A stretch of DNA of 64,000 nt from an uncultured Acidobacteriota bacterium (GCA_963796275.1 CAWCKY010000002.1:96001-160000); one strand, 5' to 3'; positions 12,479 to 61,973 are shown, counted from the stretch's first letter. Notes: generated by a model not told the origin, from the letters alone. A program made the numbers and translations.

Positions 12479-12541
12479 ATACTAACAGGGGCAGCTCGAG
12501 GCATCTTTCTGAAATTTGCTGTGTGTTGCTATTTCTTGCGA
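12479..12541 (-). promoter_or_regulatory. Shared operator-promoter copy 1 (before the DUF417 remnant and hydrolase)
   Basis: tcGCAAGAaatAGcaacacacaGCAAATttcagaAAGAT, 18-bp gap, TAGTAT. Confidence 0.8.
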
Positions 12542-12550
12542 GTTTCCTGG

Positions 12551-13156
12551 CTATGAAATCACCATAGCCTGTCTCGCATCGCGCTCCTTGACTTGCGCGT
12601 GCTCGCGTAAACAGTGCGTCTCGCAGTGCCAAAGCAGACTCGGCCAACGCCGAAGCCGCTTCACGAGCCCCTCAACACCCGCCTTGGTTGCGATATACGG
12701 GAAATATGTGGGGATTGACTTGGCGATGACGCTGCTCGAGAAAGCGATGATGCGGCCGCCTTCTGGGAGATGCGTCGCCGCCTGCCCCAGCACCAAAAAG
12801 GTTCCGCGCAAGTTGGTTGCAACCACTTTGTCGAATCTTTCTAGTTCCCCTCCAGAGATCGGAAGCAGCGGCATGATGCCGGCACAGTTGACAACTACGT
12901 TCAGCCCGTCGAAGGCATCGATGGTCTCCTTGACGAGCCGCTCCACGTCTGCGGCGTTTGCCACATCCCCCCTCACCTCGATCGCCTGTCCGCCCGCCGC
13001 CTTGATTGCGGCCATAACTTCCAGTGCCTTCGCGGAGTTGCCGGCGTAGCTCACTGTGACAGCAAAGCCGTCACGCCCCAGCCTTTCCGCCACCGCACGG
13101 CCAATCCCGCCTGAAGCGCCGGTAACGATAGCGCTCTTGATCGATGCGTTTTTCAT
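12551..13156 (-). pseudogene. SDR oxidoreductase, C-terminally truncated
   Basis: TGASGGIG, VNCAG, YIATK present; homology ends after GVEGLV and the expected VNAVAPG region is absent. Confidence 0.8.
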
Positions 13157-13363
13157 ATGTAGCTCCCTCGTTTTCGGATTCACAACCTTTTAACCCCTGA
13201 AGGGGCGCAAAAATAAAAGCCACAGGTGGAGCGAAACGCAACCCCTGACAAGTAGCATCTCGTGTCGCAATCATGTGCATCCCCTTTCGGTGTTGCGCGT
13301 GAAATAATGGGCTACCAACAGGAATATTCCTGCTATCACCTACAGTTTGGAACGATTCCGTTA

Positions 13364-13870
13364 TCACGAATGCATAATCCCCTTCTGCTTTCTGATTACG
13401 CCATCTATCGCCAATGGTCCGGAGCCACCCAAGACAAGGGCCGCGAGGCAGGCGAGATAGAGGAGGTTACATTCATAGCCTGGAGGTCCGAACTGCGCCC
13501 CGGCTGCAGTCACGGCTATCAACTTGATCGAACTGAACCCGTAGGGTAGATGCACGGTAAACATCGCCACCAGTAGAACCGCAGCCATTGGTAAGCTGAC
13601 AAGCGGCACGAAAGCGCCTAGAATTACGGCTAATCCACCAAATAGCTCGACCAGTATGGTGGTCCACGCCATGAAATGTGGTCCAGGCACGCCCATCGCT
13701 TGCAGGATGGTGGCGAAAGCGTCTGGGCCCTTGGATAGTTTGGAGAAACCGTGCTCCATGAAACCATAGCCAACTATCAGACGCAGCGGAATGGGAGCCC
13801 AGCGTGCGAGGGGAAGCCGACTTAGCAACTCCATTGAAAAAACAGGCAGCTTATTTTCACGAATACCCAT
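13364..13870 (-). CDS. DoxX family membrane protein
   Basis: PLRLIVG...HGFSKL, ELFGG, VH, GYE, GSGPLAID; start at 13870 or 13834. Confidence 0.88.
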   Translation of the reverse strand: MGIRENKLPVFSMELLSRLPLARWAPIPLRLIVGYGFMEHGFSKLSKGPDAFATILQAMGVPGPHFMAWTTILVELFGGLAVILGAFVPLVSLPMAAVLLVAMFTVHLPYGFSSIKLIAVTAAGAQFGPPGYECNLLYLACLAALVLGGSGPLAIDGVIRKQKGIMHS

Positions 13871-13874
13871 ACCT

Positions 13875-14324
13875 CTATTTTTCCAGTGAAGCGACTTCAG
13901 CCAGGCGACGCAGGTGACGCTCGGCCTGGCTGAACTCAGCCGCCAGGAACGCCTCGACAAGGTCCCAGGCGAGGAATGGCCCCAGAGTCCGAGCGCCCAG
14001 ACAAATTATGTTCATGTGATCATCCTCCACCCCTTGCCGGGCGGAGAAGTGATCGCTGATCAGACCGGCGCGAATACCCGGAATTTTATTGGCGCAGACG
14101 GTCGCGCCCACACCGCTGCCGCAAACGGCCACTCCGCGCTCGAGCTCACCTGCCGCCACCGACCGGGCCAGTGGGATAACAAAATCAGGGTAATCGTCAC
14201 CTGAATTTAGACTATGTGCACCGAAGTCGAAGACTTCATGACCCGCCGCGCGAAGACGCGCAAGCATATCTTCCTTCAGCCAGTATCCACCGTGATCGGT
14301 GGCGATTCCGAGATGCATATTCAC
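13875..14324 (-). CDS. rpiB: Ribose-5-phosphate isomerase B (RpiB/LacA/LacB family)
   Basis: TDHGG, DYPD, CGSGVG, ANKIPGIRA, RHLRRL. Confidence 0.92.
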   Translation of the reverse strand: MNMHLGIATDHGGYWLKEDMLARLRAAGHEVFDFGAHSLNSGDDYPDFVIPLARSVAAGELERGVAVCGSGVGATVCANKIPGIRAGLISDHFSARQGVEDDHMNIICLGARTLGPFLAWDLVEAFLAAEFSQAERHLRRLAEVASLEK

Positions 14325-14468: not shown

Positions 14469-15894
14469 TCAAGCTGACCTTTGTGTGCTTTTCGCGGGGA
14501 CGCTGGCCAACAGCCCGACCAGACCTTCAGACAACGTGGGATGGGTGAAGAGCGCATCACGCAACATGGTATAGGTCATACGCCCGATCATCGCGGTCTG
14601 AACAGCAGCCATCGGTTCGCTAGCCTCGAAGCAAAATGCTGTGACCCCTAGAATTTCGTCGCTGTTCGCGCCGATGAGCATCTTCAAGAACCCACGCGGT
14701 TCAGAGACCGTCACGTTACGGAGAACATCAGCCGCCTGCATTTTAGCCACGCGGTACGCGATACCATCGCGCCGCGCCTCGGATTCGTTGCTCCCCACTC
14801 GCGCCAATTCCGGATCGGTGAAGAGGCAAAACGGCACCAAACGATTCTTAGTCGTGCGATTGCCACCGTTGAGATTGCCATACACCACACGGAAATCATC
14901 AAAAGCTACATGAGTAAACTGGGGGCTGCCGGCGCAATCACCCATTGCCCAGATGTTTGCAGCGGTTGTCTCCAGCCGATCGTTGACCTTGATATAACCG
15001 CGCCCGTCGAGTTCGACTCCAGTCAGCTCAAGTCCGATGCCGTCGGTGTTCGCTATCCGGCCTGTAGCGACAAGGACGTCAGTCCCTTCGAGAATTCGCT
15101 CGCCATCCTGGTCCTTAGCATGGATGCGAACCTTCTTGCCGGAACGCCCTTCAACCCGGGCGGCATGCGTTTCGAGTAAAACATCGATCCCTTCGTCTCG
15201 AAACAACTCAAGAAGCGCGGCGCCGACATCGGAATCTTCATGTCTTGCGAGCTGCGGGCCGGCTTCTAATAACGTCACCTGCGAGCCGAATCGCCGAATC
15301 GCCGAATCGCCGAATCGCCTGCGTTAGTTCGAGGCCGACATAGCCGCCGCCGAGAACGATGAGATGCTCCGGAAGCCGGTCGAGGTCGAGAGCTTCGATG
15401 TGTGTCATCGGTTGGGCCGCAGCAAGACCCGGAATGTTGGGCATGGGCGAGCGCGAACCTAGAGCGAGAAAAACGCGATCGGCGAGAACGGTTCTCGCAC
15501 CACCTTCGTTGAGCGAGATTTCGACGGTTCGCGGAGCGATGAACCGGGCATTGCCCATGATCAGTTCCACGCCGCTGGCTACTCCAAGGTCAACGTGTAC
15601 CTGATGCTGCTCTTCGACCATGAGCCGCTTGCGACGCTGAACGCCCGCCATGTTGATGGAAAGCGAACCAAGTTCGAGGCCAAATTCCGCGCCGCGCCGC
15701 GCCAGTGAAGCCACTCTCGCGGAGTAGATCAGGTTTTTGCTTGGCAGGCATGCGACGTTGGGGCATGATCCTCCTAAATTTTTCCTTTCGACCATCGCGA
15801 TCTGATGACCCGCCTTGGCCATCGTCCAGGCAAGAAACTTACCCGCTTCTCCGCTCCCGATAACGAGATTCTCATATCTTTCGATGTCCGGCAT
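14469..15894 (-). pseudogene. MerA/RclA/Lpd-like pyridine nucleotide-disulfide oxidoreductase split by a frameshift
   Basis: GGSCPNVACLPSK disulfide motif and GGGYVG in 15238-15894; ATGR, GD and HPT in 14469-15278; the break lies in the 8-bp repeat. Confidence 0.88.
15285..15319. repeat. (GCCGAATC)x4 intragenic tandem repeat
   Basis: Four exact 8-mers at 15285-15316 plus GCC. Confidence 0.95.
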
Positions 15895-15926: not shown

Positions 15927-15989
15927 AGCTTACGAAGATGGCTCGGATGTGTCTTACTATTTTTTGCCGGAACCGGCTGTTTCTTGCGA
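15927..15989 (-). promoter_or_regulatory. Shared operator-promoter copy 2 (disulfide reductase-rpiB-doxX operon)
   Basis: tcGCAAGAaacAGccggttccgGCAAAAaatagtAAGAC, 18-bp gap, TAAGCT. Confidence 0.8.
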
Positions 15990-16094: not shown

Positions 16095-17858
16095 TCACAA
16101 ATCGATGACGACGTCTCGTATCGGTTGTGAGCAGCAAACGAGAAGATTGCCGTCGGCGGGCTTTTCGAGTGGCTCCGGGCTGTACACGATCGGCCCAGAA
16201 ACCAGACCGCTCTCACAGCTGTGACAAACACCGGTCCGGCACGACCAACGGACCGGGACGTCGCACGCCTCGGCCAGCTCCAAAATGCTCTGGTAGGCCG
16301 ATGAGTTCCAGTGTGCGGCTATGCCACTGCGAGCGAAAGATATCAGCGGACCGGTGTTGGCATCGTCCTCGGGCAGATGCGGAGCTCGCGTCACCGCGCC
16401 GACGACGCCAGGGGTCATCGACTCGCTACCATTGAAGATTTCGACGTGAATCCGCTCCGGCGCCGCGCCTAAGCTTGCGAGAGCCTCTTTCATTTCTGCC
16501 ATGAAGCGAGTAGGCCCGCAGAGGTAGACATCCGCTTCCCGTGGGACGACGACCTTGTCGAAGACCGATCGCGACAGGCGTCCGGTAGCGTCGAAATCCT
16601 CACCCATCTTGTCGCGCGAGCCCGGTCTGCTGTAACAAACATAACTTCGGCTGTGCATGAGCGAGGGAAGGAGGCGGTGGACTTCTGCGGCGAATGGATG
16701 ATGCTCCCGATCGCGAGCCCCGTGCAGCCACCAGACCTGCCGGGTCGAGCGGGCCGCCGCCAGAGCGTGCAGCATCGCCAGTACAGGTGTCGCACCGATT
16801 CCGGCGCTGAGCAGCACCACCGGTCGTTCTCCAGGCTGCAGAATGAAGCTGCCGCGCGGCGAGCTGAAGTCGAGAGCATCGCCCACTCGGACATGCTCCT
16901 GCAGGTAGGTTCCCGCCACCCCATTCGGCTCGATCTTCACGCTGATTCGATAACGCTCCGTCGAAAGTGGACCGGAGAGCGAGTAACTGCGAAAAAGTGG
17001 AGGACCGCCGGCGGTCGGCTGAAGACGCAAGACCACGTACTGGCCTGGCAGAGCCGTTCGCAGCGGCTGACCGTCCGGGCTCTGCATCGTCAGCGAGAGG
17101 ACGTCCGCCGCCTCATGATTGATCGCCGTCACCTTGAGCGGCCGAAACCCAGGTGCAACCGGATGCGCAGCAGCTGCCGGCGCGAGCCCCGCGTTACCAC
17201 TCCCTGCGCCAGTCGTTTGGCTCTGAAGTAACGCCTCAAACGACGAGCGCCAGCCGGGCGAAAGCGCTTCGATACGCAATGCGCGCTCCAGTCGATCGCG
17301 CGCATGATCGGGCGAATAGAGGAGCGCGTTGATCTCTGCGACGGTCATTTGCTCCTTCGCCTCTCCCATCTTCACGATTTCATCGCCGGCGCCCACTGCG
17401 CCTTCTTGCAGGACGCGGAAGTAAAACCCAGGCCGGCCGCTCGATGTCAGCAATGCCGGCATTCGGGGCTCGTTCATCCGAATGCCGACGCGATAACAGG
17501 TAACGCGAGGTTGAGTGACCTCGAACAGCGCGTTGCCGATCTGATAACGGTCGCCGATACACACAACATCGTCGGGCAACCCTTCGATCGTGAAATTCTC
17601 CCCGAACTGTCCGTAGACGAAGTCGGTCCTCTTCAACTGCTCCTGCCAATGGCGATACGATTCGATCTGGTAGACGAAGACGGCGCGCTGCTCTCCCCCG
17701 TGCCCGGCCAGGTCGCCTTGGCCGTCTCCCTCGATATTCAAACGGCCGACCCGACAGCGGCCAGACACCGGATACTTCCAGATTCCGGTGTGCACAGTGC
17801 GACCCTTCCACGCGATGTCGCGCGGTAGTCCGACGTTTACTGATAGTAGTCGAGCCAT
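16095..17858 (-). CDS. MOSC + FAD/NAD-binding reductase + 2Fe-2S fusion protein
   Basis: FGENFT, QPRVTC (MOSC); RSYSLS, SAGIGATP, YLCGP (FNR); CRTGVCHSC...C (ferredoxin). Confidence 0.92.
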   Translation of the reverse strand: MARLLSVNVGLPRDIAWKGRTVHTGIWKYPVSGRCRVGRLNIEGDGQGDLAGHGGEQRAVFVYQIESYRHWQEQLKRTDFVYGQFGENFTIEGLPDDVVCIGDRYQIGNALFEVTQPRVTCYRVGIRMNEPRMPALLTSSGRPGFYFRVLQEGAVGAGDEIVKMGEAKEQMTVAEINALLYSPDHARDRLERALRIEALSPGWRSSFEALLQSQTTGAGSGNAGLAPAAAAHPVAPGFRPLKVTAINHEAADVLSLTMQSPDGQPLRTALPGQYVVLRLQPTAGGPPLFRSYSLSGPLSTERYRISVKIEPNGVAGTYLQEHVRVGDALDFSSPRGSFILQPGERPVVLLSAGIGATPVLAMLHALAAARSTRQVWWLHGARDREHHPFAAEVHRLLPSLMHSRSYVCYSRPGSRDKMGEDFDATGRLSRSVFDKVVVPREADVYLCGPTRFMAEMKEALASLGAAPERIHVEIFNGSESMTPGVVGAVTRAPHLPEDDANTGPLISFARSGIAAHWNSSAYQSILELAEACDVPVRWSCRTGVCHSCESGLVSGPIVYSPEPLEKPADGNLLVCCSQPIRDVVIDL

Positions 17859-18838: not shown

Positions 18839-20029
18839 TCATAATTCCTCTTGCTTCTCTTTGATAACCGCCCCAAAACCCTGAGCGGTCAGCAGCACTT
18901 GATTAGGCCGCCGCCGATTTATACCGATTGAGACTGGGGATATGACCGCCTGCGAAGTGATTGACTTCCTGAAACCCAATTCGCAGAACCTCTTATCGAA
19001 ATCGACTCGGATAATATCTCCCGAGTCGAGCTGCCCGGTCGCGATCAAATTCGACAGCGGGATGACCAGATGGCGCTCGATCGCCCGCTTCAGTGGACGG
19101 GCGCCATAGCGCCGGTCATAGCCCTCAACAAGCAGGAAATCTTTCGCTTGGTCGCTGCAACTGAGTATGAAAGGGATATACCCTGCTTCTAGAATTCGGC
19201 ACTGAACTCGTTCGATCTCAAGCTCCAGAATTCGTCGCAGCGCCTCTTCAGTCAGCGACCGGAAGACCACTACCTTATCCAGACGGTTCATAAATTCAGG
19301 AGAAAACTTGCGCCGAGCCGCCTCTACTCCGATCTTCTCCAATTTCGCATCAAGCTCCTCAGAAGGGACGGCTCTCGATGCGAAGCCCAACTTCCCTTCA
19401 GTAACTTCACTCATCTCGCGCGCCCCGAGATTAGAGGTCAGGATCACGATGCAGTCGGAGAAGTCGACACGACGGTTGTCGCCCAGAGTGAGCGTCGCCT
19501 TATCCAAGATAGCGAGCAGCAATTGCCAAAGCGTTTCAGAGGCTTTCTCGATCTCATCGAAGAGCAAAAACGTCAGATTCGTCTGCGGCGTGTGGAAGCG
19601 ATCGAGGTTCTCCTGCGTCAACAGCGGCGCGGTCTCGCGGTGGCCCAGATAGCCCGGAGGCGATCCGACCAGCTTGGCTATCTCGTGCGAATGCTGGAAT
19701 TCGGCGCAATCAATCTTGACGATGGCGTGCGGATCACCGAACAGGACTTCGGCAGCCGCCTCGACAGCGTGTGTCTTGCCGGAACCAGTGGGGCCCAAGA
19801 AAAGCATCGTCCCGAGTGGTTTGCCGGGCAGCGCCATCTTGGCCAGATATATCTGGTATAACTGCGAGAGCGCCAGGACCGCGTCATCTTGTGCGACGAC
19901 TCGCTTAAAGAGTTCTTCTTCGAACCAGCTTGCCTTCTCGCACCTTCGCTTAGCATCCAGCGAGAGCCAACCCGACGGCTGAGTCGCTGTAGCGGCGGCT
20001 GGCCCGATTATCGATTTCTGGGATACCAT
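18839..20029 (-). CDS. Stand-alone ClpA/ClpB D2-like AAA+ ATPase
   Basis: GPTGSGKT, LVGSPPGYLG, FDEIEKA, TSNLG, PEFMNRLD, YGARPLKR; no D1 or N-domain; GGAGG before ATG 20029. Confidence 0.88.
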   Translation of the reverse strand: MVSQKSIIGPAAATATQPSGWLSLDAKRRCEKASWFEEELFKRVVAQDDAVLALSQLYQIYLAKMALPGKPLGTMLFLGPTGSGKTHAVEAAAEVLFGDPHAIVKIDCAEFQHSHEIAKLVGSPPGYLGHRETAPLLTQENLDRFHTPQTNLTFLLFDEIEKASETLWQLLLAILDKATLTLGDNRRVDFSDCIVILTSNLGAREMSEVTEGKLGFASRAVPSEELDAKLEKIGVEAARRKFSPEFMNRLDKVVVFRSLTEEALRRILELEIERVQCRILEAGYIPFILSCSDQAKDFLLVEGYDRRYGARPLKRAIERHLVIPLSNLIATGQLDSGDIIRVDFDKRFCELGFRKSITSQAVISPVSIGINRRRPNQVLLTAQGFGAVIKEKQEEL

Positions 20030-20048
20030 TTGTTCCTCCACAGAAAAT

Positions 20049-20108
20049 AGTTTTCAGTTGAGCGATTTCGATCGGAGGCTGAAAACCGAAAACTGAAAAC
20101 TGAAAACT
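20049..20108. repeat. Palindromic heptamer element (TTTTCAG...(CTGAAAA)n), copy 1
   Basis: AGTTTTCAG...CTGAAAACCGAAAACTGAAAACTGAAAACT. Confidence 0.8.
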
Positions 20109-20111
20109 CTA

Positions 20112-21119
20112 TTACATTCCCCTTCTGAAAATGCTCGGTGTGACGCCGGCCAATCTACGGAAAGAGGTTGTAAAATGGCTCTGGCTGGAGAAACCCGCCC
20201 TGAGAGCGATCTCCGAGATCGGAAGTTCTGTCTCCGCCAAGAGCCTCTTGGCCCGTTCTATCCGCTGCCGGGTGATGTAATTTATGGGGCTCAACCCTAT
20301 CGATTGTTTAAAAGATCTTGAAAAGTGGTAGTAGCTCATCCCGACCTCTTCTGCTATCACCGCCAGAGAGACCTCCTGCTCCTGCTCGAGATGATCGCTG
20401 ATGCGTTCGACAGCTCGACGCAGTTTGTGTGGCGCCATTCCACCCCTTGTGATCCGGACATCTTTCAAACAGCTGTAGCGCCTGACGAGTTGTATAGCGA
20501 TCACAGACGCCACTGAATCCGCATACAGTCTTCCGACAACGTTCTCTTCTTTCAGCTCATATAGAAGAGACATGGCAAGATAACTGAGCTGTTCATCTAT
20601 TACGCCGAGTTGCGGTTCGATCGCGATCTGCTTGTGATTGAGATCACACGCCTCAGCGGTCTTCTGGACAAACCCAGGGTGAAGATAGATGTTTAAAGTC
20701 TCCTGGGACCTGCCGCTGTGCCTACGCCAATGCGAAAGCACACCAGCCGGAATAATCGCTATCTCTCCGGGGCTCAGGCGCCGCTCAAATTCGTACCCGT
20801 CTATGCTCACGCTGGCAGTGGGCTGTGGCCCGTGCGGCCCCAGCGACAGAATCATGGAGTGACTCTCGAGAGGAGGTATCTCCATCTCGCGGTTGGTATG
20901 TCGCATGTGCAAAACCCGAATATTCTGCCAGCCGAGATACTCACTCGATGTAATGACCGCCTCAGGATGAATCTGTGACAGGTCACTCAGTGACCTCCCT
21001 AAGCGATCGCCTGTTCTATCAGCGAACATTTTTACCTTGCTACGGTGCGGTGGTCCCTCCCAAAATTGCCCAGCAAAAAGTGAGCAGTTATCGCCATAGA
21101 CTGTTTTTGTTTGGAACAT
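20112..21119 (-). CDS. AraC family transcriptional regulator
   Basis: Cupin-like N-terminal domain; double HTH (MSYYHFSRSFKQ...AGFSSQSHFTTSFRR); AAGGAAGG RBS. Confidence 0.95.
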   Translation of the reverse strand: MFQTKTVYGDNCSLFAGQFWEGPPHRSKVKMFADRTGDRLGRSLSDLSQIHPEAVITSSEYLGWQNIRVLHMRHTNREMEIPPLESHSMILSLGPHGPQPTASVSIDGYEFERRLSPGEIAIIPAGVLSHWRRHSGRSQETLNIYLHPGFVQKTAEACDLNHKQIAIEPQLGVIDEQLSYLAMSLLYELKEENVVGRLYADSVASVIAIQLVRRYSCLKDVRITRGGMAPHKLRRAVERISDHLEQEQEVSLAVIAEEVGMSYYHFSRSFKQSIGLSPINYITRQRIERAKRLLAETELPISEIALRAGFSSQSHFTTSFRRLAGVTPSIFRRGM

Positions 21120-50318: not shown

Positions 50319-53300
50319 CCTCCTCGCAAGCCGATCAAAAAAGAGGTAGATAACCGGCGTCGTATACAAAGTAAGCAGCTGGCTCACCATCAGTCCGCCA
50401 ACGATGGTGATACCGAGTGGCCGGCGTAACTCCGATCCGATTCCCGACCCGAAAGCCAACGCCAGGCCAGCCAGAAGAGCGGCCATAGTGGTCATCATGA
50501 TCGGGCGAAATCGCAGCAGACAGGCTTCATAGATCGCATCGAGCGGGCTCTTGCCGCCATTTCGCTCCGCATCGAGAGCGAAATCGATCATCATGATGGC
50601 GTTCTTTTTAACGATACCTATCAGCAGGATGATGCCAATGATCGCAACCACATCCAGTTCCGACCGGCTGACCATCAGGGCAAGAATGGCTCCAACTCCA
50701 GCCGATGGGAGTGTCGACAGAATCGTAATCGGATGAATGTAGCTTTCATAAAGAACCCCCAGCACAATATAGACTGTCACCAGTGCCGCCAGAATGAGGA
50801 GAGGCTGGTTGGACAGTGAAGCCTGGAACGCTGCAGCCGCGCCCTGGAAGGCGGGCTGAATACTCGCCGGCATACCGATCTCTTTTTGAGCCCCTTCGAT
50901 CGCAGTTATGGCCTCACCCAATGCAGCGCCGGGGGCCAGGTTGAATGAGATGGTGACGACGGGGAATTGCCCTTGATGGTTGATAGACAGGGGCGCGGTC
51001 CCCGACTCAAAATGAGCGAACGCGCTAAGCGGCACTGCTCCATTCGAAGTGAAGGCAGAAGCCTGAGTAAAGACGGAAGCCTGAGCAACTGAAGTTCCAG
51101 TCGCAGATGACGTGGCGAAACCCGGAGCCGGCGCCGGCGCTGCGACTAAACTGGAAGCCTGCACAGCTGAAGTTGTAATCGCAGCCGACGCGGCTAGACC
51201 GGTAGCCGGCATCGGTGTTGCGACTATGCCGGATGACTGCGCAGTTGAAGTTGCAATCGCAGCCGACGCGGCAAGGCTTGTAGCCGGGGTCGCTGCCGGG
51301 ACTATGCTGGATACCTGAGGAGCTGAACCTCCAGCCCCAGAACCTACGCCGGCGAGACTTGCAGCCGGCGTTGCCGCCGGGGCAGCAGAGCGAACATAGA
51401 TGTCATGCAATTTAGCCGGGTTCTTTTGAAAGTCCGGCATCGTTTCCAGAATGACGTGGTACTGGTTCAGCTGTGTGAAAAGCGTCGAGACTTGGCGTTG
51501 ACCGAAGGCGTCGTAGAGCGTGTCAACGATCAAAAGTGGCGTAATCCCCATCCGCGAGGCCGTCACACGGTCGATGACGAGTGATGTTTGCAGGGCACGA
51601 GTCTGCTGGTCGGTGGCCACATCGCGGAGTTGAGCCAGCGCCTTCAGCTTGTCGACTATCTTCGTTGCCCAGGCGTTCAACTCATTCGAGTCGGGGGCTT
51701 CCAGCGTGTACTGATATTGTGTTCGGCTGACCCGATCTTCAATCGTCAAATCCTGCACCGGCTGCATGTAGAGCGTGATGCCGTCGACCTTCGCCAGTTC
51801 CGGCTGCAGGCGGCGGATCACCTCGGCGGCGCTTATTTTGCGATCTTCCAACGGCTTGAGATTGATCAGAATGCGACCGCTATTGAGCGTGGTGTTTGTG
51901 CCATCTACGCCGATGAACGAAGAAAGACTCGCGACCGCCGGGTCTTTCAGAACGACCTGGACGAGCGCCTGTTGTCTCTGTGACATCGCAGGGAACGAGA
52001 TCGATTGCTGTGCCTCCGAGATGCCCTGGATCACGCCTGTGTCCTGCACGGGGAAGAAGCCTTTCGGTACGATGATGTAAAGCCAGATAGTGAGGCCAAG
52101 CATCGCTACAGCTATGAGCAGAGTCGCCGCTTGATACTTCAGAACCCACTGAAGAGTCTTCCCATAGAATCCGATGATGCTTTGAAAGACATGTTCCGAT
52201 GCTCGATAGAGCCGCCCATGATGCGCCTCGGGTTTGTGGCGTAACAATTTGGCGCACATCATCGGCGTGAGCGTCAGGGAGACGATGGCAGAGATGAGAA
52301 TGGTCACGGCGAGGGTGATGGCAAACTCGCGGAATAACCGCCCGACGATGTCTCCCATGAAGAGCAGCGGAATCAGGACGGCGATCAGCGAAATCGTCAA
52401 AGACACAATAGTGAATCCGATCTGCTCAGCCCCCTTCAACGCAGCAGCGAGAGGGTTCTCGCCTGCCTCGACATAGCGAATGATGTTCTCGATCATAACG
52501 ATCGCATCGTCTACTACAAAGCCCGTCGAAATAGTCAACGCCATAAGAGTCAGGTTGTTGAGGCTATAGCCGAGCATATACATCACGGCAAGCGCCCCCA
52601 CGAGAGAGAGCGGCACCGCGACGCCCGGAATGATCGTCGCCGACAGGTTACGTAAAAAGAGAAAGATCACCATCACCACGAGCGCCACGGTTAGCATGAG
52701 ATCGAACTGAACATCCTTGACCGATGCGCGGATCGTAACGGTGCGATCAGTCAGAACCGAAACCTCAATGGAAGATGGCAGGGTCGTCTGCAGCTGCGGC
52801 AAAAGCGCTTTGATCCGGTCGACAACCTCGATGATATTGGCGCCAGGTTGCCGCTGGATGTTGACGATCACTGCCGGAACGTCATTCATCCATGCCGCCT
52901 GCTTGACGTTTTCTACATCGTCAATTACGGTCGCCACGTCCGACAGCACGACCGGCGCCCCGTTGCGATAGGCAACCAAAACGGACCGGTAATCCTTACT
53001 CGTCAAAATCTGATCGTTCGCGTTGATCTGATATGATTGGTGCGGCCCGTCGAGGTTCCCCTTGGCCAGGTTGACGCTCGTCTGTTGCACCGCGGACCGC
53101 AGATCCTCGAGATTGATGCCGTACGATGAGAGTGCCGTGGGGTTCGCCTGAATCCGGACAGCCGGTTTCTGGCCGCCGCTGATGCTCACCAGTCCCACCC
53201 CCGGCAACTGCGATATCTTCTGAGCGAGCCGTGTATCCGCCAGGTCCTGTACCTTTGATAACGGGATGGAGTTCGATGTCAGCGCCAATGTCAGAACCGG

Positions 53301-53711
53301 CGTGTCGGCCGGATTTGTTTTGCTGTAAATGGGCGGAGTAGGGAGATCAGCAGGCAGATAGGTCTGCGCCGCGTTGATCGCCGCCTGCACCTCTTGCGCT
53401 GCCACATCAATATTGATGTCGAGCGAAAACTGCAGAATGATGACGGAGCTGCCGCCCGAACTCGTCGACGTCATCTGATTCAGTCCCGGCAACTGCCCTA
53501 ATTGCCGTTCGAGCGGCGCGGTGACGCCGGTGGCCATGACATCGGGACTGGCCCCGGGAAAGAAAGTCAGGATTTGAATTGTGGGGTAGTCCACTTCGGG
53601 CAACGCCGAAACAGGCAGTTGCCTATATGCCACGATGCCGGCGAGCAGAATGGCCGCCATCAGCAGCGATGTCGCGACCGGCCGAAGGATGAACTGGCGA
53701 GAAGGACTCAC
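50313..53711 (-). CDS. mdtB: RND permease MdtB-like with an Ala/Ser/Thr-rich repeat insertion
   Basis: [33 protein letters not shown]; 1132 aa versus 1043 aa for its MdtC partner. Confidence 0.88.
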
Positions 53712-54943
53712 AGGCCCGCCCTTCGATTCGTATTCTCAGGCTGCCTGCGCCCGACTACCTTGACTCCGTCTTGCAGCTTGTCAAACCCATCAACAGCGAC
53801 GATGTCGCCTGGGCTCACTCCCTCTACCGCTGTCACATTGCCCTCCGTTGTACCTACCGAGATATTGCGCATCGCAGCAGTCTGGTCGTGGTTCACCACG
53901 AACACATAGGCGCTCTGGGCGTTGCGCTGAATGGCCGCCGTTGGAACCAGAGTTGCTCCGCGTTGCGTCTCGATCAGGAGTCTCGCGTTCACGAACTGGT
54001 TCGGAAAAAGAGAATTGTCCTTATTCGGAAAGATCGACTTGAGCCTAATCGTCCCGGTGGTTGTGTCGATCAGATTGTCCAGGGTTAAGAGGGATCCGGT
54101 CGCAAGCCTCTTCTGTTGTGTGCGGTCAAACGCTTCAACCTCCAGACGGTGTCCCCGCCGCAACTGTTGCTGGATATTCGGCAGGTAGTCCTGAGCCACA
54201 CTGAAAATCACAGTGATCGGCTGAAGCTGTGTGATGACCAGTAGACCGCCTGTACCGCTCGCGGAGACGATATTGCCAGGGTCTACCAGTCGAAGGCCCA
54301 CGCGGCCTGAAATGGGCGAGGTGATGCGGCAATATGCAAGCTGTACCTTTGCGCTATCAACCTGCCCCTGATCGAACTTGACCGTACCTTCTAACTGGTG
54401 GACTGTTGCAACCTGGGTATCGAGCGTTTGTCTGGGTATCGCTTTCCTGGCATATGCCTCCTTGTAACGATCCAGGTCGATGTATGCGTTCTCCAACAAT
54501 GCTTTGTCGCGCGCAAATTGTCCTTCTGCTTGAGTCAGCTGTGCTTGAAAAGGCCTGGGATCGATCTCCGCCAAAAGATCGCCTTCGCGAACCATCTGCC
54601 CTTCTTGGTAGTTCACGCTCATGAGCTGTCCATCCACCCGGCTTTGGACTGTCACGGTATAGACCGGCGTCACCGTACCGAGGGCGTTGAGATAAACCCC
54701 GATATTGCCTTTCTCCGCAGCGGCTATAACGACAGCCACTGCCGGCCGGCTCGGAGCCGGATTGGCTTTCTTCATTTGCTCAGCCCTCTGACGTTGGAAG
54801 AGAAAGAACCCGCCGCCCCCTAAAAGGAGAGCTACGAGAAGCCAACCCCACCTGTGCCTCCTTCGTCGGGAAGGTTTATCCGGTGCTGTGTTGGGGACCG
54901 GAGGTGGCGATTGGTTGGAATCTGTTTGTGTGTCTTCGGGCAT
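53708..54943 (-). CDS. mdtA: MdtA-like periplasmic adaptor
   Basis: [37 protein letters not shown]; start uncertain. Confidence 0.9.
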
Positions 54944-54984
54944 CTTCACAAAATTGAAGAGTGCGCAAATTAAGATGACTGGAA

Positions 54985-55548
54985 TCAACTACTTATTTCA
55001 TAGAGAAACCAGATACGACGCTCCGTTTGATCCAGGATTTCCTGTAACAAGTTGCTGGTCGGCGTATCACGGTTCTGCTCGCAGATTTCTATCGCCGCCC
55101 GCTGCATCTCAGCAATATGACGGTTATCATTGAGTAACTCTTCGATCATTTTGTCCGGAGGCACGAAATCCTGGTTGTCGTCCTCGATGGTCTGCAGCTG
55201 GCTGATGTGAGTGATGCTGCGGATCGTAGTCCCGCCTATTCGGCGCATCCTCTCAGCCAGAGGGTCGATAGATTCGAAGATGGCATCCGCTTGCTCGTCA
55301 AGCAGCAGGTGGTAGTCCCGATAATGCGAACTCGCAATGTGCCAGTGAAAGTTCTTTGTCTTGGCGTAAAGCGCAAACGCGTCGGCGATCAGCGGATTGA
55401 CCGCCTCGACAATTCGTTTCACTTCTTCCGGCTTGAGGTCGGTCGGTGTAGCGAGCTGCTTGGGGGCCGGATAGGATTTGACCTGTTCACCCTTTCTGGT
55501 TGATGCAGCCTGTTGAGATGTCGTTTTGTTTGCTGTACCGGTAGCCAT
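54985..55548 (-). CDS. dps: Dps DNA starvation/stationary-phase protection protein
   Basis: KTKNFHWH, HLLLDEQ, D.LAER, ERRIWFL. Confidence 0.95.
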   Translation of the reverse strand: MATGTANKTTSQQAASTRKGEQVKSYPAPKQLATPTDLKPEEVKRIVEAVNPLIADAFALYAKTKNFHWHIASSHYRDYHLLLDEQADAIFESIDPLAERMRRIGGTTIRSITHISQLQTIEDDNQDFVPPDKMIEELLNDNRHIAEMQRAAIEICEQNRDTPTSNLLQEILDQTERRIWFLYEISS

Positions 55549-56222: not shown

Positions 56223-56285
56223 ATCCTATCAGAGGGAACGCGAGGCATCTTTCTGAATTTTGTCGAGAGTTGCTGTTTCTTGCGA
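56223..56285 (-). promoter_or_regulatory. Shared operator-promoter copy 7 (DUF4136-dps-mdtABC)
   Basis: tcGCAAGAaacAGcaactctcgACAAAAttcagaAAGAT, 18-bp gap, TAGGAT; 40/46 identical to copy 1. Confidence 0.85.
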
Positions 56286-56723: not shown

Positions 56724-57602
56724 TTATGGATTGCCCTCCGCCTCCCCCGCCCCCCCTGCTCTTTTGAAGGAAGTCGATGATGAAGTTGTAGTCTCGATGG
56801 CCCATCGCTCCGGATCGTGCTCTTCCAGATAAAATTCACGGCTCATCGAACCTACGATCATTGATTTCGTGATGGGGAGCTTTTCCGGTCGAACGGCAAA
56901 GTAGACGTGCACCATAACCAACGCGATCAGTCCCACGCCCGCCAGCCCGTGCATCACATAGATCAGCCCCCAGGTCATATCGCTGAAGAGATACGGATTG
57001 CGTGGGAAGAAGATCGTACGCACGCGAAACATCATAAACACTCCCGTGATGATCGCCGACAGGCCGGTGGCGATTATCGCGAGATGATAGAGCTTGTTGT
57101 CCAGGGGATATTTGGCGAATTTCCGCGGCGGCGGATATGCATATCCCAAAAACCGCCGAATCCTTCTCCAGGCGTCTCGCAAATCTATTTTGTCCGGCCA
57201 GATAGACCAGAAGTCCAGCCAAAAGGAGGCATGGATGATGTGAAAGAGAATGGAAGCGGTCAACACGGTCCCCGCGATCCAATGATAGGTCACCCAGTCA
57301 AACTGGTACCCCACTTTAGGCAGGAAGGCGGTGACCAGCAGCGTGAGCATTGAGGCTGCCATAATCCAGTGAAACAGCCGCGCGGCCAGCGAGTGCCTGG
57401 GAATCCGATCTGGTAACCGGTCCGCGAACTCCAGCGACTCACCTTCAGCAAACTCCCTATCCTTGGCGAAATACCGCACGTAGATGGCGTGAACGACGAG
57501 GAAGATCAATCCAGCGATCGCTGCCGCCCAGATCAAGAACCATGCAATGTGGATGGGTACATTCTCACCCCACGGACTAGTGGCCCACTCTATGATGTCC
57601 AT
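56724..57602 (-). CDS. Di-haem cytochrome b (formate dehydrogenase gamma/FdnI-like)
   Basis: RHS..ARLFHW, YHW, KY...KLYH, MH...VHVY, SMI.G....Y..EH; extra N-terminal TM. Confidence 0.85.
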   Translation of the reverse strand: MDIIEWATSPWGENVPIHIAWFLIWAAAIAGLIFLVVHAIYVRYFAKDREFAEGESLEFADRLPDRIPRHSLAARLFHWIMAASMLTLLVTAFLPKVGYQFDWVTYHWIAGTVLTASILFHIIHASFWLDFWSIWPDKIDLRDAWRRIRRFLGYAYPPPRKFAKYPLDNKLYHLAIIATGLSAIITGVFMMFRVRTIFFPRNPYLFSDMTWGLIYVMHGLAGVGLIALVMVHVYFAVRPEKLPITKSMIVGSMSREFYLEEHDPERWAIETTTSSSTSFKRAGGAGEAEGNP

Positions 57603-58615
57603 GTTACTTCCTCCACTCCGCCGATGGCGCGTTTCACCAGATTCCTCATCAGCGGGATCTTGTAAGCGTTGAACTGTAACGGGATTGCTCCCTGCACGGC
57701 TAGTCTCCCCGCCATCTCACCGGTCTCCGCGCTCGGCGGCTTGCCGCGAACTGCGTCTTCGACCGCCTTCAACCGCAGCGGACGAGCGGCCGCGCCGTTC
57801 ACCGCTATGCGGATTCGCTCGATCCTCTCTCCTGCTACCACCATGGCCGAGGCCACGTTCAACAAGGGAAAGTCCCACACGTTCCGGTCTCGCACTTTCT
57901 CAAAATAGAATTTCGCACCGTTCCCTGCGGACCATGTCGATGGAATCCTAATGGCTGTCAGAAGATCTCCCGGCTGCAAGATGTGCATTCGGGTGATGTC
58001 GATCTCCGGTCCGATGAAGTAGTCCTCGGCATCCACGACGCGCTCACCCTTCGGCGTCCGGATGGCGAATTTAGCGTCCAGTGCGATGAGTGCCGGAGCA
58101 GAATCGGACGGATTGACGGCCACGCAGCGGTCCGCGTGGAGAATCGCGTGCTCGCGGTTCCGGGCCGTCGGTGTGTCGGCATAGCAAATGTTCCCTCCGG
58201 CACGATAGCACGGCCAACCCGCCCGGTAATACCAGCAACGTGCGTCCTGCGACACATTGCCGCCGATCGTGCCCTGGTTCCTGATCTGCGGCGATGCTAC
58301 CAATTCCGCTCCCTGCGCCAGCAGACCGTAGTTTTGTTTGATGATCGGATTCTTCACCACTTCGGTGAGTGTGGTCATCGCGCCGATCTCGATGCCGTCA
58401 CGGGTTGTACGAACTCCCTTGAGTTCACCGATTCCGCTCAGATCGATCACCACCTTCGGTCTCTTGATACGATCCTTGAGCCAGTCGAAGCTATCCATCC
58501 CTCCGGCCAGTATCCAGGCATCTTGCCCATATTGTTCGAGAAGCTTCTGGGCATCAGCTACTGAGGCCGGTTGAAGCAGCTCGAAAGCGGGCATGACATC
58601 TCGTATTACAGCCAT
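57590..58615 (-). CDS. Xanthine dehydrogenase family FAD subunit (PaoB/YagS-like)
   Basis: AGG.D, ASPQIRNQGTIGGN, CWYYR...CY..GG..C...C (4Fe-4S insert), PSD, NAYK. Confidence 0.92.
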   Translation of the reverse strand: MAVIRDVMPAFELLQPASVADAQKLLEQYGQDAWILAGGMDSFDWLKDRIKRPKVVIDLSGIGELKGVRTTRDGIEIGAMTTLTEVVKNPIIKQNYGLLAQGAELVASPQIRNQGTIGGNVSQDARCWYYRAGWPCYRAGGNICYADTPTARNREHAILHADRCVAVNPSDSAPALIALDAKFAIRTPKGERVVDAEDYFIGPEIDITRMHILQPGDLLTAIRIPSTWSAGNGAKFYFEKVRDRNVWDFPLLNVASAMVVAGERIERIRIAVNGAAARPLRLKAVEDAVRGKPPSAETGEMAGRLAVQGAIPLQFNAYKIPLMRNLVKRAIGGVEEVTWTS

Positions 58616-58712: not shown

Positions 58713-61223
58713 TTAAATGAATGCCATCAAGGGATGCTGCATGGGCCGCCCCGCCTCCAACGATGTCAGAATGGTGTCGGCATTGACGGGGGCGCGCCGG
58801 AAGATATCGTCCCCTAGCGCATCCGAGAGGGCATTTAAGATAGAAGCACATCCGCCTCCAACAGGTGGTTCGCCTATACCGCGAGCGCCAACTGGCGTCT
58901 CCGGATCCGGGATATCCAGCGCCATCCATTGCATAGTGTGTGGTACATCCAGAATCGTCGGCGGCTTGTTTTGGTAGAAACGTGTGGAGACCATGATGCC
59001 GTAATGGGGATCGAAGACCCACTTCTGGCCGATCGCATGACCAATACCCAGCGTCGAGCGACCAAGCACCTGACCGCCGTGCGCGGCTGGGTGGATCACA
59101 GTCCCGGTGTCGGCAGATGCAAGGAAATCCACTATATAGTAATTGCCGGTCTCGAGATCGACCTCGACTTCGGCAAAGCTGGCGACATATGAATAGGTCA
59201 TACCGTCTCGCCCATAGTTGTCGCGAGCGGCCACAACCAGGCCCTGGCCAGCGAGTGCAGCCACCGACGCCCTGGTAAAACTGTTCACATCCGCGCTGGC
59301 TTCGTGTCCGTCGTAGATGCCACCCAGTTGAATGGCGCGCTGGGCAGCATGCGCCAAAGTCATGCCGGCGCCGCCCTTCCGAAAAACACGCTCGTTCGCG
59401 ACCTCGTAATCCTCCGGCCTGCCGCCGAGACTCATGGCGGCGATCTCCCGGAGCCGCTTCCTTGCCTCCATCGCCACCGCGTGTGCCGCCCGTGTCATCG
59501 CGTGAGTCGTCTGGCTGCCGCCGGAGACGCAGGTATACGGAAAGTTTTTCGAGGTGTCGCCCCAGACGACGTCGCACTTCTCCCACGGCACGCCGAGAAC
59601 CTCCGCGCCCACACGGTGAACGTCGATCACCGACTCCGTACCCAGGTTGCCGATTCCGGACAGGAATGAAACCCTGCCATCAGGATTGATAACTAACAGC
59701 CCGTCGAAGCCGATCGTGCCACCGACGTAACAGCTAAGCGATACACCGACACCACGCGCCTTCGAGCCGATTCGTTTAGGGTTGCGCGCTGCTCTCTCCT
59801 TCCATTTGAACTGTTCTGCGCCGCGGTCGAGCGCCTCCTTGAGGAATGCGCTCGTTGCATGCTGCCGCTTTCCCTGCACCTGGGGTCCGAACTCCGCCTT
59901 GCCCTCCGGACAGTTGATTCGGCGGATGGCGACCTGGTCGATCCCGAGCTTGCGCGCAGCATGCGCGATAATCGGTTCGATGATGGTAATCCCCTGCATT
60001 CCGCCAGGTGCGCTCTGCGCGCTCCGTGGCGGCGTGTTCGTCAGAACCGTCACACCGCGCCAGCGCATCGCTTGCGGTTGATACAGAAGAGAGACGATAC
60101 GACCCGACGTGGGAGCATCGCCCTGCGCGTCGTAGGGACCGTTATTGGAAATTACGAACATGTCGAGCGCCGTGATCCTCCCCTCCCTGGAGAAGCCCAC
60201 TTTCATTCGGCCTTGAAAACCGGGGCGCGCGCGTCCGATGAAGGTCTCCTCCTCGCGGCTAATGCGCATCATTACCGGGGCGTTGGCCTTCTTCGACAGG
60301 AGCGCTGGGATGATCATCGTGACTCCGCCGGTTATCTTGCTGCCGAAACCGCCACCTGTATATTCGCTGATAAAGACGACTTTGCTCTGGTCCATGTTCA
60401 ACCATCGGGCGAGGACAGGTAGTGTCCGAGCCGTGCTCTGAGTGCCCGAGTGAACGTAGACCTTGCCGTTCTGCCAGTAAGCCATTGCACTGCGCGGTTC
60501 GAGGGTCTGATGGCTGGTGTCCGGAGTAACGAACGTTTCATCGAGTATAAGCGCAGCATTCTTGAAACCCGCATCGAGGTCGCCGTACGCCCATTCGTCT
60601 GGCGCCTTGCCCATCGGCAACCGGCCGTCCTTGTACTCAGCGAAGTCCGCCTCGGTCCACTTGAGTTCCGCGACCAGGGGTAGCGATTGACCCTGCGGGG
60701 GGAGCCAGATGTTGCCGTCGGTTCTCGCGTTCGGCCCACCGGGACGAAGAGTCTCCAGTGGGTCGACGACGAACGGAAGACGCTCAAAATCGATGCGAAT
60801 TTTTTCGATCGCTTCCGCGGCTGTGAGCTCGTCAATCGCGGCCACAGCGAGGATCGGTTCACCCTGGTAGAGCGGCTCCATGGTGAGCGCCCGTTCAACC
60901 CACTTGCTGGCCTTGATCACTGTTCCATTATCTGTGAGCGTATCAGCTGGAGGTGGCAGATCATCCGCCGTCAGAATCGCTTTGACGCCGGGCATAGCGA
61001 GCGCCTCGCTCGTATCGATGCGCTTGATACGCGCATGCGGCAACGGGCTGAGCAATAGCTTGCAGAACAGCATGCCTTCGGCGCGATAGTCTTCGGCGTA
61101 CTTCGCCTTCCCCGTGACCTTCGCATAGAGATCGGCGGTCGTGTAGTTTTTGCCGATCAACTTGTACTGAGGCGCGTCTTTAGAACGCGCCGCTTTGACA
61201 GGCTCTCTTACCTTATCCGGCAC
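58713..61223 (-). CDS. Xanthine dehydrogenase family molybdopterin-binding subunit
   Basis: KVTGKAKY, SPLPHARI, GGGFGSK, SGGS, RGIGEP (catalytic Glu). Confidence 0.93.
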   Translation of the reverse strand: MPDKVREPVKAARSKDAPQYKLIGKNYTTADLYAKVTGKAKYAEDYRAEGMLFCKLLLSPLPHARIKRIDTSEALAMPGVKAILTADDLPPPADTLTDNGTVIKASKWVERALTMEPLYQGEPILAVAAIDELTAAEAIEKIRIDFERLPFVVDPLETLRPGGPNARTDGNIWLPPQGQSLPLVAELKWTEADFAEYKDGRLPMGKAPDEWAYGDLDAGFKNAALILDETFVTPDTSHQTLEPRSAMAYWQNGKVYVHSGTQSTARTLPVLARWLNMDQSKVVFISEYTGGGFGSKITGGVTMIIPALLSKKANAPVMMRISREEETFIGRARPGFQGRMKVGFSREGRITALDMFVISNNGPYDAQGDAPTSGRIVSLLYQPQAMRWRGVTVLTNTPPRSAQSAPGGMQGITIIEPIIAHAARKLGIDQVAIRRINCPEGKAEFGPQVQGKRQHATSAFLKEALDRGAEQFKWKERAARNPKRIGSKARGVGVSLSCYVGGTIGFDGLLVINPDGRVSFLSGIGNLGTESVIDVHRVGAEVLGVPWEKCDVVWGDTSKNFPYTCVSGGSQTTHAMTRAAHAVAMEARKRLREIAAMSLGGRPEDYEVANERVFRKGGAGMTLAHAAQRAIQLGGIYDGHEASADVNSFTRASVAALAGQGLVVAARDNYGRDGMTYSYVASFAEVEVDLETGNYYIVDFLASADTGTVIHPAAHGGQVLGRSTLGIGHAIGQKWVFDPHYGIMVSTRFYQNKPPTILDVPHTMQWMALDIPDPETPVGARGIGEPPVGGGCASILNALSDALGDDIFRRAPVNADTILTSLEAGRPMQHPLMAFI

Positions 61224-61869
61224 CGTTAGTCCTCCTCATTATCTCCGCGCCGCGCATTATCGCGGTGAGTATCTTGTCATAGTCCTGGCACCGGCAAAGG
61301 TTACCTGAAATGCCATGCGCCAATTCTGAGCGCGTGGGATTGGTGTTTGTTTTCAGGAACCCGACCGCCGACATAATGAAGCCCGACATACAGAATGCGC
61401 ACTGAAACCCTTGTTCCTCGACGATCCCCTGCTGCACCGGGTGCAGTGTTCCGTCGACGCGCGCCAGGCCCTCGATCGTCACAACTTTTCGGCCGCGCAC
61501 CGTGTGTGTGAGTATCGAGCACGAATAGTGGGGCACATCTTCAATGAGAACAGTACAGGCGCCGCATTCAGCGCGGTCGCAGCCGAGCTTGGTGCCAGTG
61601 AGGCCCAGCTTGTAACGCAGCGTCCACGCCAGCGTCTCTTGCTTCATAACATCGACTCGCCGCTGCTGGCCGTTGACGTTTACCGTGATCAGTCGCTCTC
61701 CTGCACCAGCGGCCGGTCTCTGGCCCGGTCCCTGGCTATGGATAAGAGTGGAGGCGCGGAACAGATAACTCGCTGAAGAAACTGCCGCGCCTCCAGCAAT
61801 GACCCCTTTGATGAAATTGCGTCTCGAAACTGACTTCGGAGTGTCATCGATTATCTTATCTGTCTTCAT
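61213..61869 (-). CDS. Twin-arginine (Tat) 2Fe-2S subunit (PaoA/YagT-like)
   Basis: SRRNFIK; GTKLGCDRAECGACTV, QCAFC, GNLCRC. Confidence 0.93.
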   Translation of the reverse strand: MKTDKIIDDTPKSVSRRNFIKGVIAGGAAVSSASYLFRASTLIHSQGPGQRPAAGAGERLITVNVNGQQRRVDVMKQETLAWTLRYKLGLTGTKLGCDRAECGACTVLIEDVPHYSCSILTHTVRGRKVVTIEGLARVDGTLHPVQQGIVEEQGFQCAFCMSGFIMSAVGFLKTNTNPTRSELAHGISGNLCRCQDYDKILTAIMRGAEIMRRTNGAG

Positions 61870-61909
61870 ATCTGGTTCATGTCTATCAATTCTGCCGTTT
61901 CAAAGCTTA

Positions 61910-61973
61910 TTTCTAGCAGAGGCAGGGTACCCGGGTCTTACATAAATTTGCGGCTAATTGCTCTCTTTTGCTA
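61910..61973 (-). promoter_or_regulatory. Shared operator-promoter copy 8 (molybdoenzyme operon)
   Basis: taGCAAAAgagAGcaattagccGCAAATttatgtAAGAC, 19-bp gap, TAGAAA (weaker -10). Confidence 0.75.

Follow-up and report, generated by a model that had tools for sequence, protein, structure and literature searches.

A 37-nt direct-repeat box at nine promoters within 50 kb of an Acidobacteriota genome, a probable operator of an AraC-family regulator of efflux and detoxification genes

A stretch of 64,000 nucleotides (nt) from the genome of an uncultured Acidobacteriota bacterium (GCA_963796275.1, CAWCKY010000002.1:96001-160000; the whole stretch is called the window below) contains nine copies of one gapless sequence, GCAARA-N3-AG-N9-RCAAAW-N6-AAGAY (the box). 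The nine promoters concerned lie within 50 kb (the island), and most likely one AraC-type regulator jointly switches on from them the genes of efflux and of the detoxification of oxidants and aldehydes. The candidate is the AraC-family protein of 335 amino acids (aa) encoded at 20112-21119 on the minus strand; the probability that the box is its operator is estimated at about 0.7. The organism belongs, by kinship, to the class Blastocatellia. A literature search found nothing on the box, and no described regulon or operator turned up for Acidobacteriota.

Box sequence and promoter layout

The pattern has nine exact matches in the window and none in each of 100 dinucleotide-preserving shuffles; these nine are also the sole exact matches across the organism's own genome (9,456,497 bases in 7 contigs, the window being positions 96001-160000 of contig C2). 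Both checks had been proposed in a preliminary description of the window, which listed eight of the sites. All eight were recovered as exact matches, and a ninth, at 45434-45470 on the minus strand, had been overlooked. The length of 39 bp given there has to be corrected, as the pattern as written comprises 37 nt and the earlier spans carry two surplus bases at the 5' end, while the statement that the boxes are intergenic and aimed at the downstream gene is true of all nine, relative to the open reading frames (ORFs) taken as genes. The GCAA units occupy box positions 1-4 and 21-24, and AAGAC occupies positions 33-37. A weight matrix built from the nine boxes gives them scores of 38.2-45.1 bits; the genome's runner-up, at 24.2 bits, is an A-rich low-complexity sequence.

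Two pairs of boxes, 12503/56247 and 23752/45115, are, by their sequences, recent copies of one another: both pairs give a BLAST match of 82%, and in the former the agreement extends to unconstrained positions. The unconstrained positions of the remaining 34 of the 36 pairs look random, which argues that the conservation reflects constraint and not copying alone; taken together with the two copied pairs, this leaves about seven independent copies of the box.

The −10-like hexamers listed in the preliminary description (TAGTAT, TAAGCT three times, TAGGAT twice, TAGTGT and TAGAAA) do stand 18 or 19 nt past their boxes. In a collection of 59 non-redundant boxes scoring at least 20 bits, taken from the window and other genomes, a TAnnnT hexamer starts 18 nt downstream of 25 boxes and 19 nt downstream of 23 (48/59 together), against an average of 0.44 at each of the 43 remaining offsets; 41 of the 50 boxes from outside the window have it at one of the two distances. 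The hexamer is an independent signal, because the −10 element is not part of the matrix. When it is set at −12 to −7, AAGAC falls at −35 to −31 and the GCAA units at about −67 and −47, with a spacer of 17-18 bp. AAGAC matches the GAC of TTGACA, making a weak −35, and aligns with TTGAC at this spacer length to TAnnnT, in agreement with the earlier placement of the AAGAY end at −35. The AraC/XylS-type geometry suggested at the same time was also borne out: the direct repeats have a period of 20 bp, the proximal repeat abuts the weak −35, and the spacer is fixed. By this layout, the box fits a class II activator site of the AraC/XylS type.

A weaker box lies outside the island, at C4:335198-335234 (plus strand; positions 2199-2235 of locus L148). 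It scores 18 bits, has TAAGCT at 18 nt, and is followed by a Shine-Dalgarno sequence, the ATG of an exported TPR protein and then a DinB-family gene; this arrangement suggests that it is likely a weaker tenth member of the regulon. A site at C3:300673 (26.8 bits) was taken as a chance match, lying inside an ORF of beta-lactamase fold and having no −10 element. The possibility that the motif, read in reverse, is a −24/−12 element of sigma-54 promoters was rejected by inspection, since there is no GG at the required distance from GC.

Link of the box to the AraC lineage

The strict pattern was found in 0 of 40 relatives, and the island DNA is represented in two genomes of the same genus by scattered pieces of about 70% identity only. 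A relaxed pattern was scanned in 401 genomes of the class Blastocatellia, among which is an unpublished one, G296, on which no claim rests; it had a match in 62 of the 401, mostly single hits of chance quality. Five genomes were followed up from these hits (G181, G058, G037, G154 and G275), and the hits in the first three agree at unconstrained positions too. Sites scoring above 17 bits with the window matrix number 9 in 89 kb of G037 (contig C51), 9 in 80 kb of G058 (C1), 10 in 60 kb of G275 (C7), 5 in 60 kb of G181 (C3) and 4 in G154, compared with fewer than 45 in 9.4 Mb of the own genome outside the window. Divergent back-to-back pairs are common among these clustered boxes, most of which are followed by a −10 element at the right distance. 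In tblastn searches of 37 window proteins against the islands, several had matches of 48-79% identity in G037 and G058, including the products of an operon for OEP, HlyD, MFS and cytidylate-kinase-like proteins, a porin-like protein, the AraC protein, a ClpB-like ATPase, a receiver-only protein, a FixJ-type regulator and a histidine kinase.

The box is also kept ahead of like genes. In other genomes, the first ORF behind each box was picked mechanically, and some calls may be wrong. The check for the motif upstream of orthologues, suggested in the preliminary description, found boxes before the genes of SodC (first ORF in locus L091), a DUF4136 protein (L096) and Dps (L081), before the OEP operon (OEP being the first ORF in G037 and G058, in an operon orthologous to the unit behind the window box at 29740), before the gene of a PaoA-like protein in G058 (with a further box in G275 that precedes a PaoA-like tblastn match by about 170 nt) and before a homologue of the 638-aa porin-like protein of the window (G154, contig C19, and L086). 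Fdh-type molybdoenzymes of about 990 aa come first after boxes in G037, G058 and G275, an RND protein does so in G037 and an SDR protein in G154 (contig C21); ECF sigma factors (L086, L103), DinB (G058) and a TPR protein (L105) were also met in this position.

All five box-holding genomes have an orthologue of the DNA-binding domain of the window AraC protein (51-77% identity); in four of them it is encoded on the same contig as the boxes, 1-40 kb off, and in the fifth (G154, contig C19) a box adjoins it. The boxes of G181 are shifted to GCAGGA units, and the AraC relative there has the most divergent DNA-binding domain (51%). A test independent of the box employed 78 loci fetched by AraC homology alone. 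The 27 orthologue loci among them (41-62% identity, 376 kb) contain 31 box hits of at least 18 bits, spread over 19 loci, compared with a single one for the reversed matrix; in the 51 loci of more distant homologues (734 kb) there are six hits (three acidobacterial, two alphaproteobacterial), again with one for the reversed matrix. Of 77 usable loci, six (0.34 expected) have a strict GCAA-N16-GCAA repeat that follows the AraC homologue on its own strand, no more than 105 nt beyond its end. These loci come from cyanobacteria (L101, L102), Pyrinomonadales (L112) and alphaproteobacteria (L114, L117, L127), and all six repeats begin with GCAAGA (GCAAGA-N14-GCAA). In L101 and L102, TATAAT is located 32 nt past the second GCAA, a distance equal to that in the window, and the genes downstream of the L102 repeat encode a tautomerase, a hydrolase, a DJ-1/PfpI protein and a zinc alcohol dehydrogenase. 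The recognition helices S..HF.R.F and GF.SQS.F are invariant in nine such proteins, which share 43-63% domain identity with the window AraC protein.

The protein itself matches HTH_18 (PF12833) with 97.0 bits (cut-off 33.6) and HTH_AraC (PF00165) with 70.5 bits (cut-off 26.6); the match to the Pfam AraC_binding family, 16 bits, is below the cut-off. AlphaFold2 modelling with an alignment of 20 sequences (mean predicted local distance difference test score, pLDDT, 77) predicted disordered residues 1-46, a cupin-like beta barrel at 55-146, a helical linker and two helix-turn-helix motifs. The modelled DNA-binding domain superposes on those of AraC, MarA, SoxS and AdpA with root-mean-square deviations of 1.3-2.6 Å. 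A Foldseek search found full-length matches to ToxT, Rns, CsvR and CuxR, ToxT and Rns being the best, and to the AraC dimerisation domain (PDB code 2arc; template modelling score 0.58 of target); the N-terminal domains are fold-level relatives of those of ToxT and Rns only, at 10-16% identity. The model thus indicates a cupin domain joined to a double helix-turn-helix, the build of AraC, ToxT and CuxR; the barrel, the double motif and the fold matches point to a dimeric, ligand-domain member of the AraC/XylS group, not to a monomer of the SoxS/MarA type. No NCBIfam equivalog is reached, the SoxS, MarA and RobA models scoring 39-48 bits against cut-offs of 174-426 (SoxS 47.1 against 174, MarA 39.6 against 202, RobA 47.5 against 380), and the RclR equivalog NF040475 is scored at 35.7 bits with a cut-off of 400. 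The comparative data link the box to this AraC lineage and not to the other regulators of the window, which supports the earlier assignment of the activator role to this protein; as a protein, however, it is not SoxS/MarA- or RclR-like.

Relatives of the protein at E ≤ 0.001 number 1178 in the database, with no specific name among the 120 listed. Full-length orthologues (E ≤ 1e-70) are present in 15 of the 401 class genomes (the own genome is counted among the 15, and G296 was in the search set) and in 13 of the 350 of high quality; only one of 86 other genomes searched in the window's own family has one. Such a distribution indicates that the module is accessory and patchy. As a separate observation, an AraC relative in G181 (locus L050, 6570-7622; contig C3) has a HisKA (histidine phosphotransfer) domain in place of the cupin N-terminus (44 bits), which is an unusual fusion.

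Several results weigh against the AraC protein as the reader of the box, or against the breadth of the comparison. The boxes elsewhere were not independently discovered, because the matrix used was trained on the window sites, and the search is partly circular; a second matrix trained on 23 boxes ranks eight window sites as the genome's top eight, but its training boxes had themselves been found with the window matrix and it inherits the circularity. Outside the own genome, conservation of the AG (box positions 10-11) is lower. Eight of the 27 orthologue loci, many on short contigs, have no box of at least 18 bits, and the AraC gene itself has no upstream box. The six cross-phylum cases represent only three independent lineages, and the loose pattern GCA[AG]-N15-17-GCA[AG] is not enriched near remote AraC homologues (0.48 vs 0.43 per kb). 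Finally, in many loci the AraC gene is accompanied by kinase, FixJ-type and receiver-only genes, and co-occurrence there cannot separate them.

Alternative readings and proposed mechanism

The window encodes five regulators, and the four beyond the AraC protein were not weighed in the preliminary description. They are a receiver-only response regulator (23232-23657, minus strand), whose gene is conserved beside that of the AraC protein and which has the full phospho-acceptor set; a sigma-54-dependent response regulator (21546-23159, minus strand) with REC, AAA+ and Fis HTH domains; a histidine kinase (30326-31894, plus strand) with DUF4118, PAS, HisKA and HATPase domains, FixL-like but below the cut-off; and a FixJ/NarL-type response regulator (31704-32522, plus strand) with REC and GerE domains, whose true start is probably downstream of 31894. 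The box might be bound by the last of these, phosphorylated by the adjacent PAS kinase, with the AraC protein controlling something else. The position of the two genes in the middle of the island agrees with this, as do the orthologues (48-75% identity) found together with AraC and boxes in G037, G058 and G154 (contig C38) and the presence of at least one of the two, kinase or FixJ-type orthologue, in 12 of the 27 orthologue loci; FixJ, too, is known to activate from sites upstream of and overlapping the −35. The distribution makes this reading quite unlikely, however. The FixJ-type regulator does not accompany the box everywhere: the whole genomes of G275 (96% complete) and G181 (94% complete), both of which have boxes and AraC, yielded no orthologue at E ≤ 1e-25, and loci such as L074, L076, L079, L084 and L087 have boxes or Dps beside AraC and no FixJ-type gene within the flank. 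At a threshold of at least 40% identity, the loci of remote homologues (L097-L147), including the cyanobacterial and alphaproteobacterial ones with GCAAGA-N14-GCAA, gave no match to any window regulator but AraC. Furthermore, the box has no dyad symmetry, and domains of the GerE type usually bind inverted repeats.

A composite or a different factor is conceivable as well. The AraC protein might act only together with the receiver-only protein, the two forming a split response regulator, or the box might be read by an unlinked regulator or by a dedicated sigma factor with GAAAGAC as its −35. This is unlikely, although the receiver-only gene immediately precedes AraC in many loci and its product retains the complete phospho-acceptor set, AraC-type domains from response regulators (6swi, 3lsg) are among the solved structures that the DNA-binding domain matches best in sequence, and GAAAGA is conserved more than a typical −35. 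The −10 is of the housekeeping TAnnnT type with AAGAC in register with TTGAC, the window has no sigma gene, and the cross-phylum loci with an AraC homologue have no homologue of the window receiver gene at 40% identity or above. Repression by the AraC protein bound to the box, or a likeness that is mainly copied promoter DNA without common control, seems highly improbable. Two promoter pairs are indeed recent copies, and some AraC-family proteins are known to repress; against this, the other 34 pairs are alike at constrained positions only, the box has been kept across families ahead of like genes, and a site at about −67 to −31 beside a poor −35 occupies an activator position and does not block the −10 or the start.

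If the AraC protein is the binder, as is preferred here, a dimer held by the N-terminal cupin and helical domain would read the box, each subunit contacting one of the two GCAA(R)A...G units, which span about −67 to −57 and about −47 to −37. The proximal subunit, abutting the weak −35 (AAGAC), would recruit or stabilise the housekeeping RNA polymerase, which would use the TAnnnT 17-18 bp further on; activation would be of class II, the mode known from AraC, XylS and RhaS promoters. About 33 genes in eight transcription units would fire together, the ninth box being of doubtful function, and would supply three tripartite efflux systems, SodC, Dps, a PaoABC-like aldehyde oxidoreductase, a YdeP-family oxidoreductase with a porin-like protein, the operon of disulfide reductase, RpiB, DoxX and SDR, and a hydrolase. 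The signal could be a ligand of the cupin domain, or could come via the conserved neighbouring kinase and receiver proteins, which in the own genome may control AraC synthesis through a sigma-54 promoter.

A sigma-54-like element, TGGTAC-N5-TTGC, is located at 21294-21308 (minus strand), 175 nt before the AraC start and just past the gene of the sigma-54 activator, and may provide a local extra tier of control. Among the 27 orthologue loci, such an element precedes AraC in two, L094 (where the activator gene is next door) and L080; its absence from the other 25 led us to reject it as a general feature, and matches to the sigma-54 pattern are not enriched across the window (51 vs 61 expected). 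A perfect sigma-54-type TGGCAC-N5-TTGC is present at 63447-63461 (minus strand), about 190 nt before the gene of a TIGR03118 (PEP-CTERM-associated) protein at 62131-63258.

Target genes, related systems and setting of the island

The target families named in the preliminary description were supported by Pfam and NCBIfam, with the exception of a DUF417 remnant, which could not be confirmed. All boxes but the third are on the minus strand. Box 1 (12503-12539, −10 TAGTAT at 12479-12484), paralogous to box 8, precedes an alpha/beta hydrolase gene (11300-12391). Box 2 (15951-15987, TAAGCT at 15927-15932) heads a unit for a pyridine-nucleotide disulfide oxidoreductase, RpiB (13875-14324), DoxX (13364-13960) and SDR (12551-13183); the oxidoreductase (14469-15894, minus strand) is encoded in two ORFs that overlap, its N-terminal part at 15238-15894 and its C-terminal part at 14469-15278, a split due to a frameshift that represents either a real pseudogene or an assembly error. 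Box 3 (23752-23788, plus strand, TAAGCT at 23808-23813) precedes sodC (23872-24408) and sits in a divergent region common to sodC and the REC gene, whose start is at 23657. Box 4 (29740-29776, TAGGAT at 29716-29721) is followed by the operon for OEP (28269-29678), HlyD (26801-28141), MFS (25168-26769) and cytidylate-kinase-like (24413-25279) proteins, and box 5 (38185-38221, TAGTGT at 38160-38165) by the genes of an RND adaptor (36843-38132), an RND pump (33666-36827) and an unassigned protein (32543-33745).

Box 6 (45115-45151, TAAGCT at 45091-45096) precedes the genes of the 638-aa exported porin-like protein (42968-44884), the C-terminus of which is beta-barrel-like, and of a YdeP/FdhF-family oxidoreductase (40487-42859; 848 bits against TIGR01701); the unit perhaps also includes 39849-40490. 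Box 7, the one at 45434-45470, lies 283 nt upstream of box 6, has a poor −10 (TAGAGG at 45410-45415) and is separated from box 6 by no credible ORF; it may be a second upstream promoter or a decayed copy. Box 8 (56247-56283, TAGGAT at 56223-56228) heads an operon for a DUF4136 lipoprotein (55579 to about 56154), Dps (54985-55548), an RND adaptor (53708-54988), two RND pumps (50313-53711 and 47131-50262) and OEP (45583-47088). Box 9 (61935-61971, TAGAAA at 61910-61915) precedes the genes of a PaoABC-like aldehyde oxidoreductase (61213-61869, 58713-61223 and 57590-58615) and of cytochrome b561 (56724-57602).

Parts of this organisation are known from other AraC-family systems. AraC at araBAD (I1-I2) and RhaS/RhaR have a like repeat layout; in XylS, AraC and RhaS systems, the two recognition helices read a 5' and a 3' box within every repeat, as they would in the window box, and an N-terminal ligand/dimerisation domain is combined with a C-terminal double helix-turn-helix, as in the window AraC protein. 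These regulators serve one catabolic pathway through one or two sites, whereas the window has stress and efflux genes and nine sites. For XylS at Pm, two 15-bp direct repeats are described (PMC5481539), each with a box A and a box B, the proximal repeat being filled first; the window box shares with it the direct repeats about two helical turns apart and the reach of the proximal one to a weak −35, and differs in its unit and period (GCAARA-N3-AG and 20 bp, in place of TGCA-N6-GGTA and 21 bp for XylS).

The likeness to SoxS lies only in the kind of genes controlled, not in the protein. SoxS, MarA and Rob have an AraC-family domain, act at or near the −35, and control regulons mixing superoxide dismutase, redox enzymes and an RND pump. 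SoxS and MarA, however, are single-domain monomers of about 110-130 aa with scattered targets, and Rob has a C-terminal GyrI-like domain, whereas the window AraC protein has 335 aa and an N-terminal cupin, so that its architecture is of neither kind. SoxS and MarA bind a single asymmetric 20-bp marbox, unlike the tandem repeat of the window; the boxes do not follow the marbox consensus (GCAC, 7 nt, YAAA), position 4 being A in 9/9 and positions 12-15 being unconserved. RclR, an AraC-family activator adjacent to a pyridine-nucleotide disulfide oxidoreductase of the RclA kind, was a lead of the preliminary description, and the reductase family was found by Pfam; the window AraC protein is far below the RclR model, and its reductase gene is the one split in two ORFs. 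ExsA (type III secretion), ToxT and Rns offer the arrangement of one AraC-type activator, a long asymmetric site by the −35 and about ten clustered promoters, but they control the virulence machinery of pathogens, and the window genes are for detoxification and efflux in a soil bacterium. The acid fitness island of Escherichia coli (GadX/GadW, EvgAS, YdeO) similarly combines AraC regulators, a NarL-family two-component system and an RND pump, and the acid response takes in YdeP and Dps, both of whose families are present in the window; glutamate decarboxylase and Hde chaperones are absent from the window, there is no relation between the operators, and the regulators were not shown to be orthologous.

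The predicted mechanism is a textbook one, and the value of the system lies in the phylum, the sharpness of the operator and the hint at a cross-phylum subfamily, not in a new principle. The Acidobacteriota, a little-studied phylum, rank with the most abundant bacteria of soils, and what is offered for them is a sharply defined operator, a promoter layout (−35-like AAGAC, 17-18 bp, TAnnnT) and a candidate regulator. The prediction is that the three efflux systems, SodC, Dps, the aldehyde oxidoreductase and the YdeP-type enzyme are induced together; such co-induction would give a handle on how Acidobacteriota meet oxidants, aldehydes or toxic compounds. The helices and box shared with cyanobacteria and alphaproteobacteria could help to annotate the large uncharacterised AraC subfamily to which the 1178 relatives belong. 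A more far-reaching and rather doubtful suggestion is that an unrecognised cross-phylum AraC subfamily with a GF-SQSHF helix reads GCAAGA-N14-GCAA, all its members switching on defences against electrophiles, oxidants and xenobiotics. In Blastocatellia, this ancient module would have come under a relay of PAS kinase, receiver, FixJ-type and sigma-54 proteins, and the copying of promoters would have expanded it into a multi-stress island that is self-contained and patchily inherited; the receiver-only protein would act on AraC directly.

Among the neighbours of the AraC gene is a 400-aa protein (18839-20041, minus strand) with a single AAA_2 module and a ClpB D2-small domain, which has relatives of 56-63% identity in 13 of the 27 orthologue loci. 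Hairpin elements flank the AraC gene at 20040-20115 (z −3.6) and 21445-21525 (z −9.8; a stem-loop of about 75 nt, −45 kcal/mol). The former is repeated in the own genome and both same-genus genomes, and copies of the latter occur in one of these, G002, only; the copies are in both orientations, which points to REP-like elements or terminators. Rfam models had no matches in the window at gathering thresholds. In the box-less stretch downstream of AraC, a 587-aa protein (16095-17858, minus strand), fusing MOSC, YiiM helix, FAD/NAD-binding and 2Fe-2S ferredoxin parts, adjoins a double DUF427 protein.

An origin of the island from a mobile element was considered and rejected, as there is no integrase among the scanned ORFs, no tRNA gene and no break in composition. 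The sole mobile trace is a 125-aa ORF at 29813-30190 (plus strand), a TnpB/Cas12f-like C-terminal remnant (PF07282, 82.5 bits) located between box 4 and the kinase gene; a repeat of about 420 bp in the same place (about 29854-30273) is 93% identical to positions 357717-358141 of contig C2 of the own genome and 85% identical to a site on contig C6.

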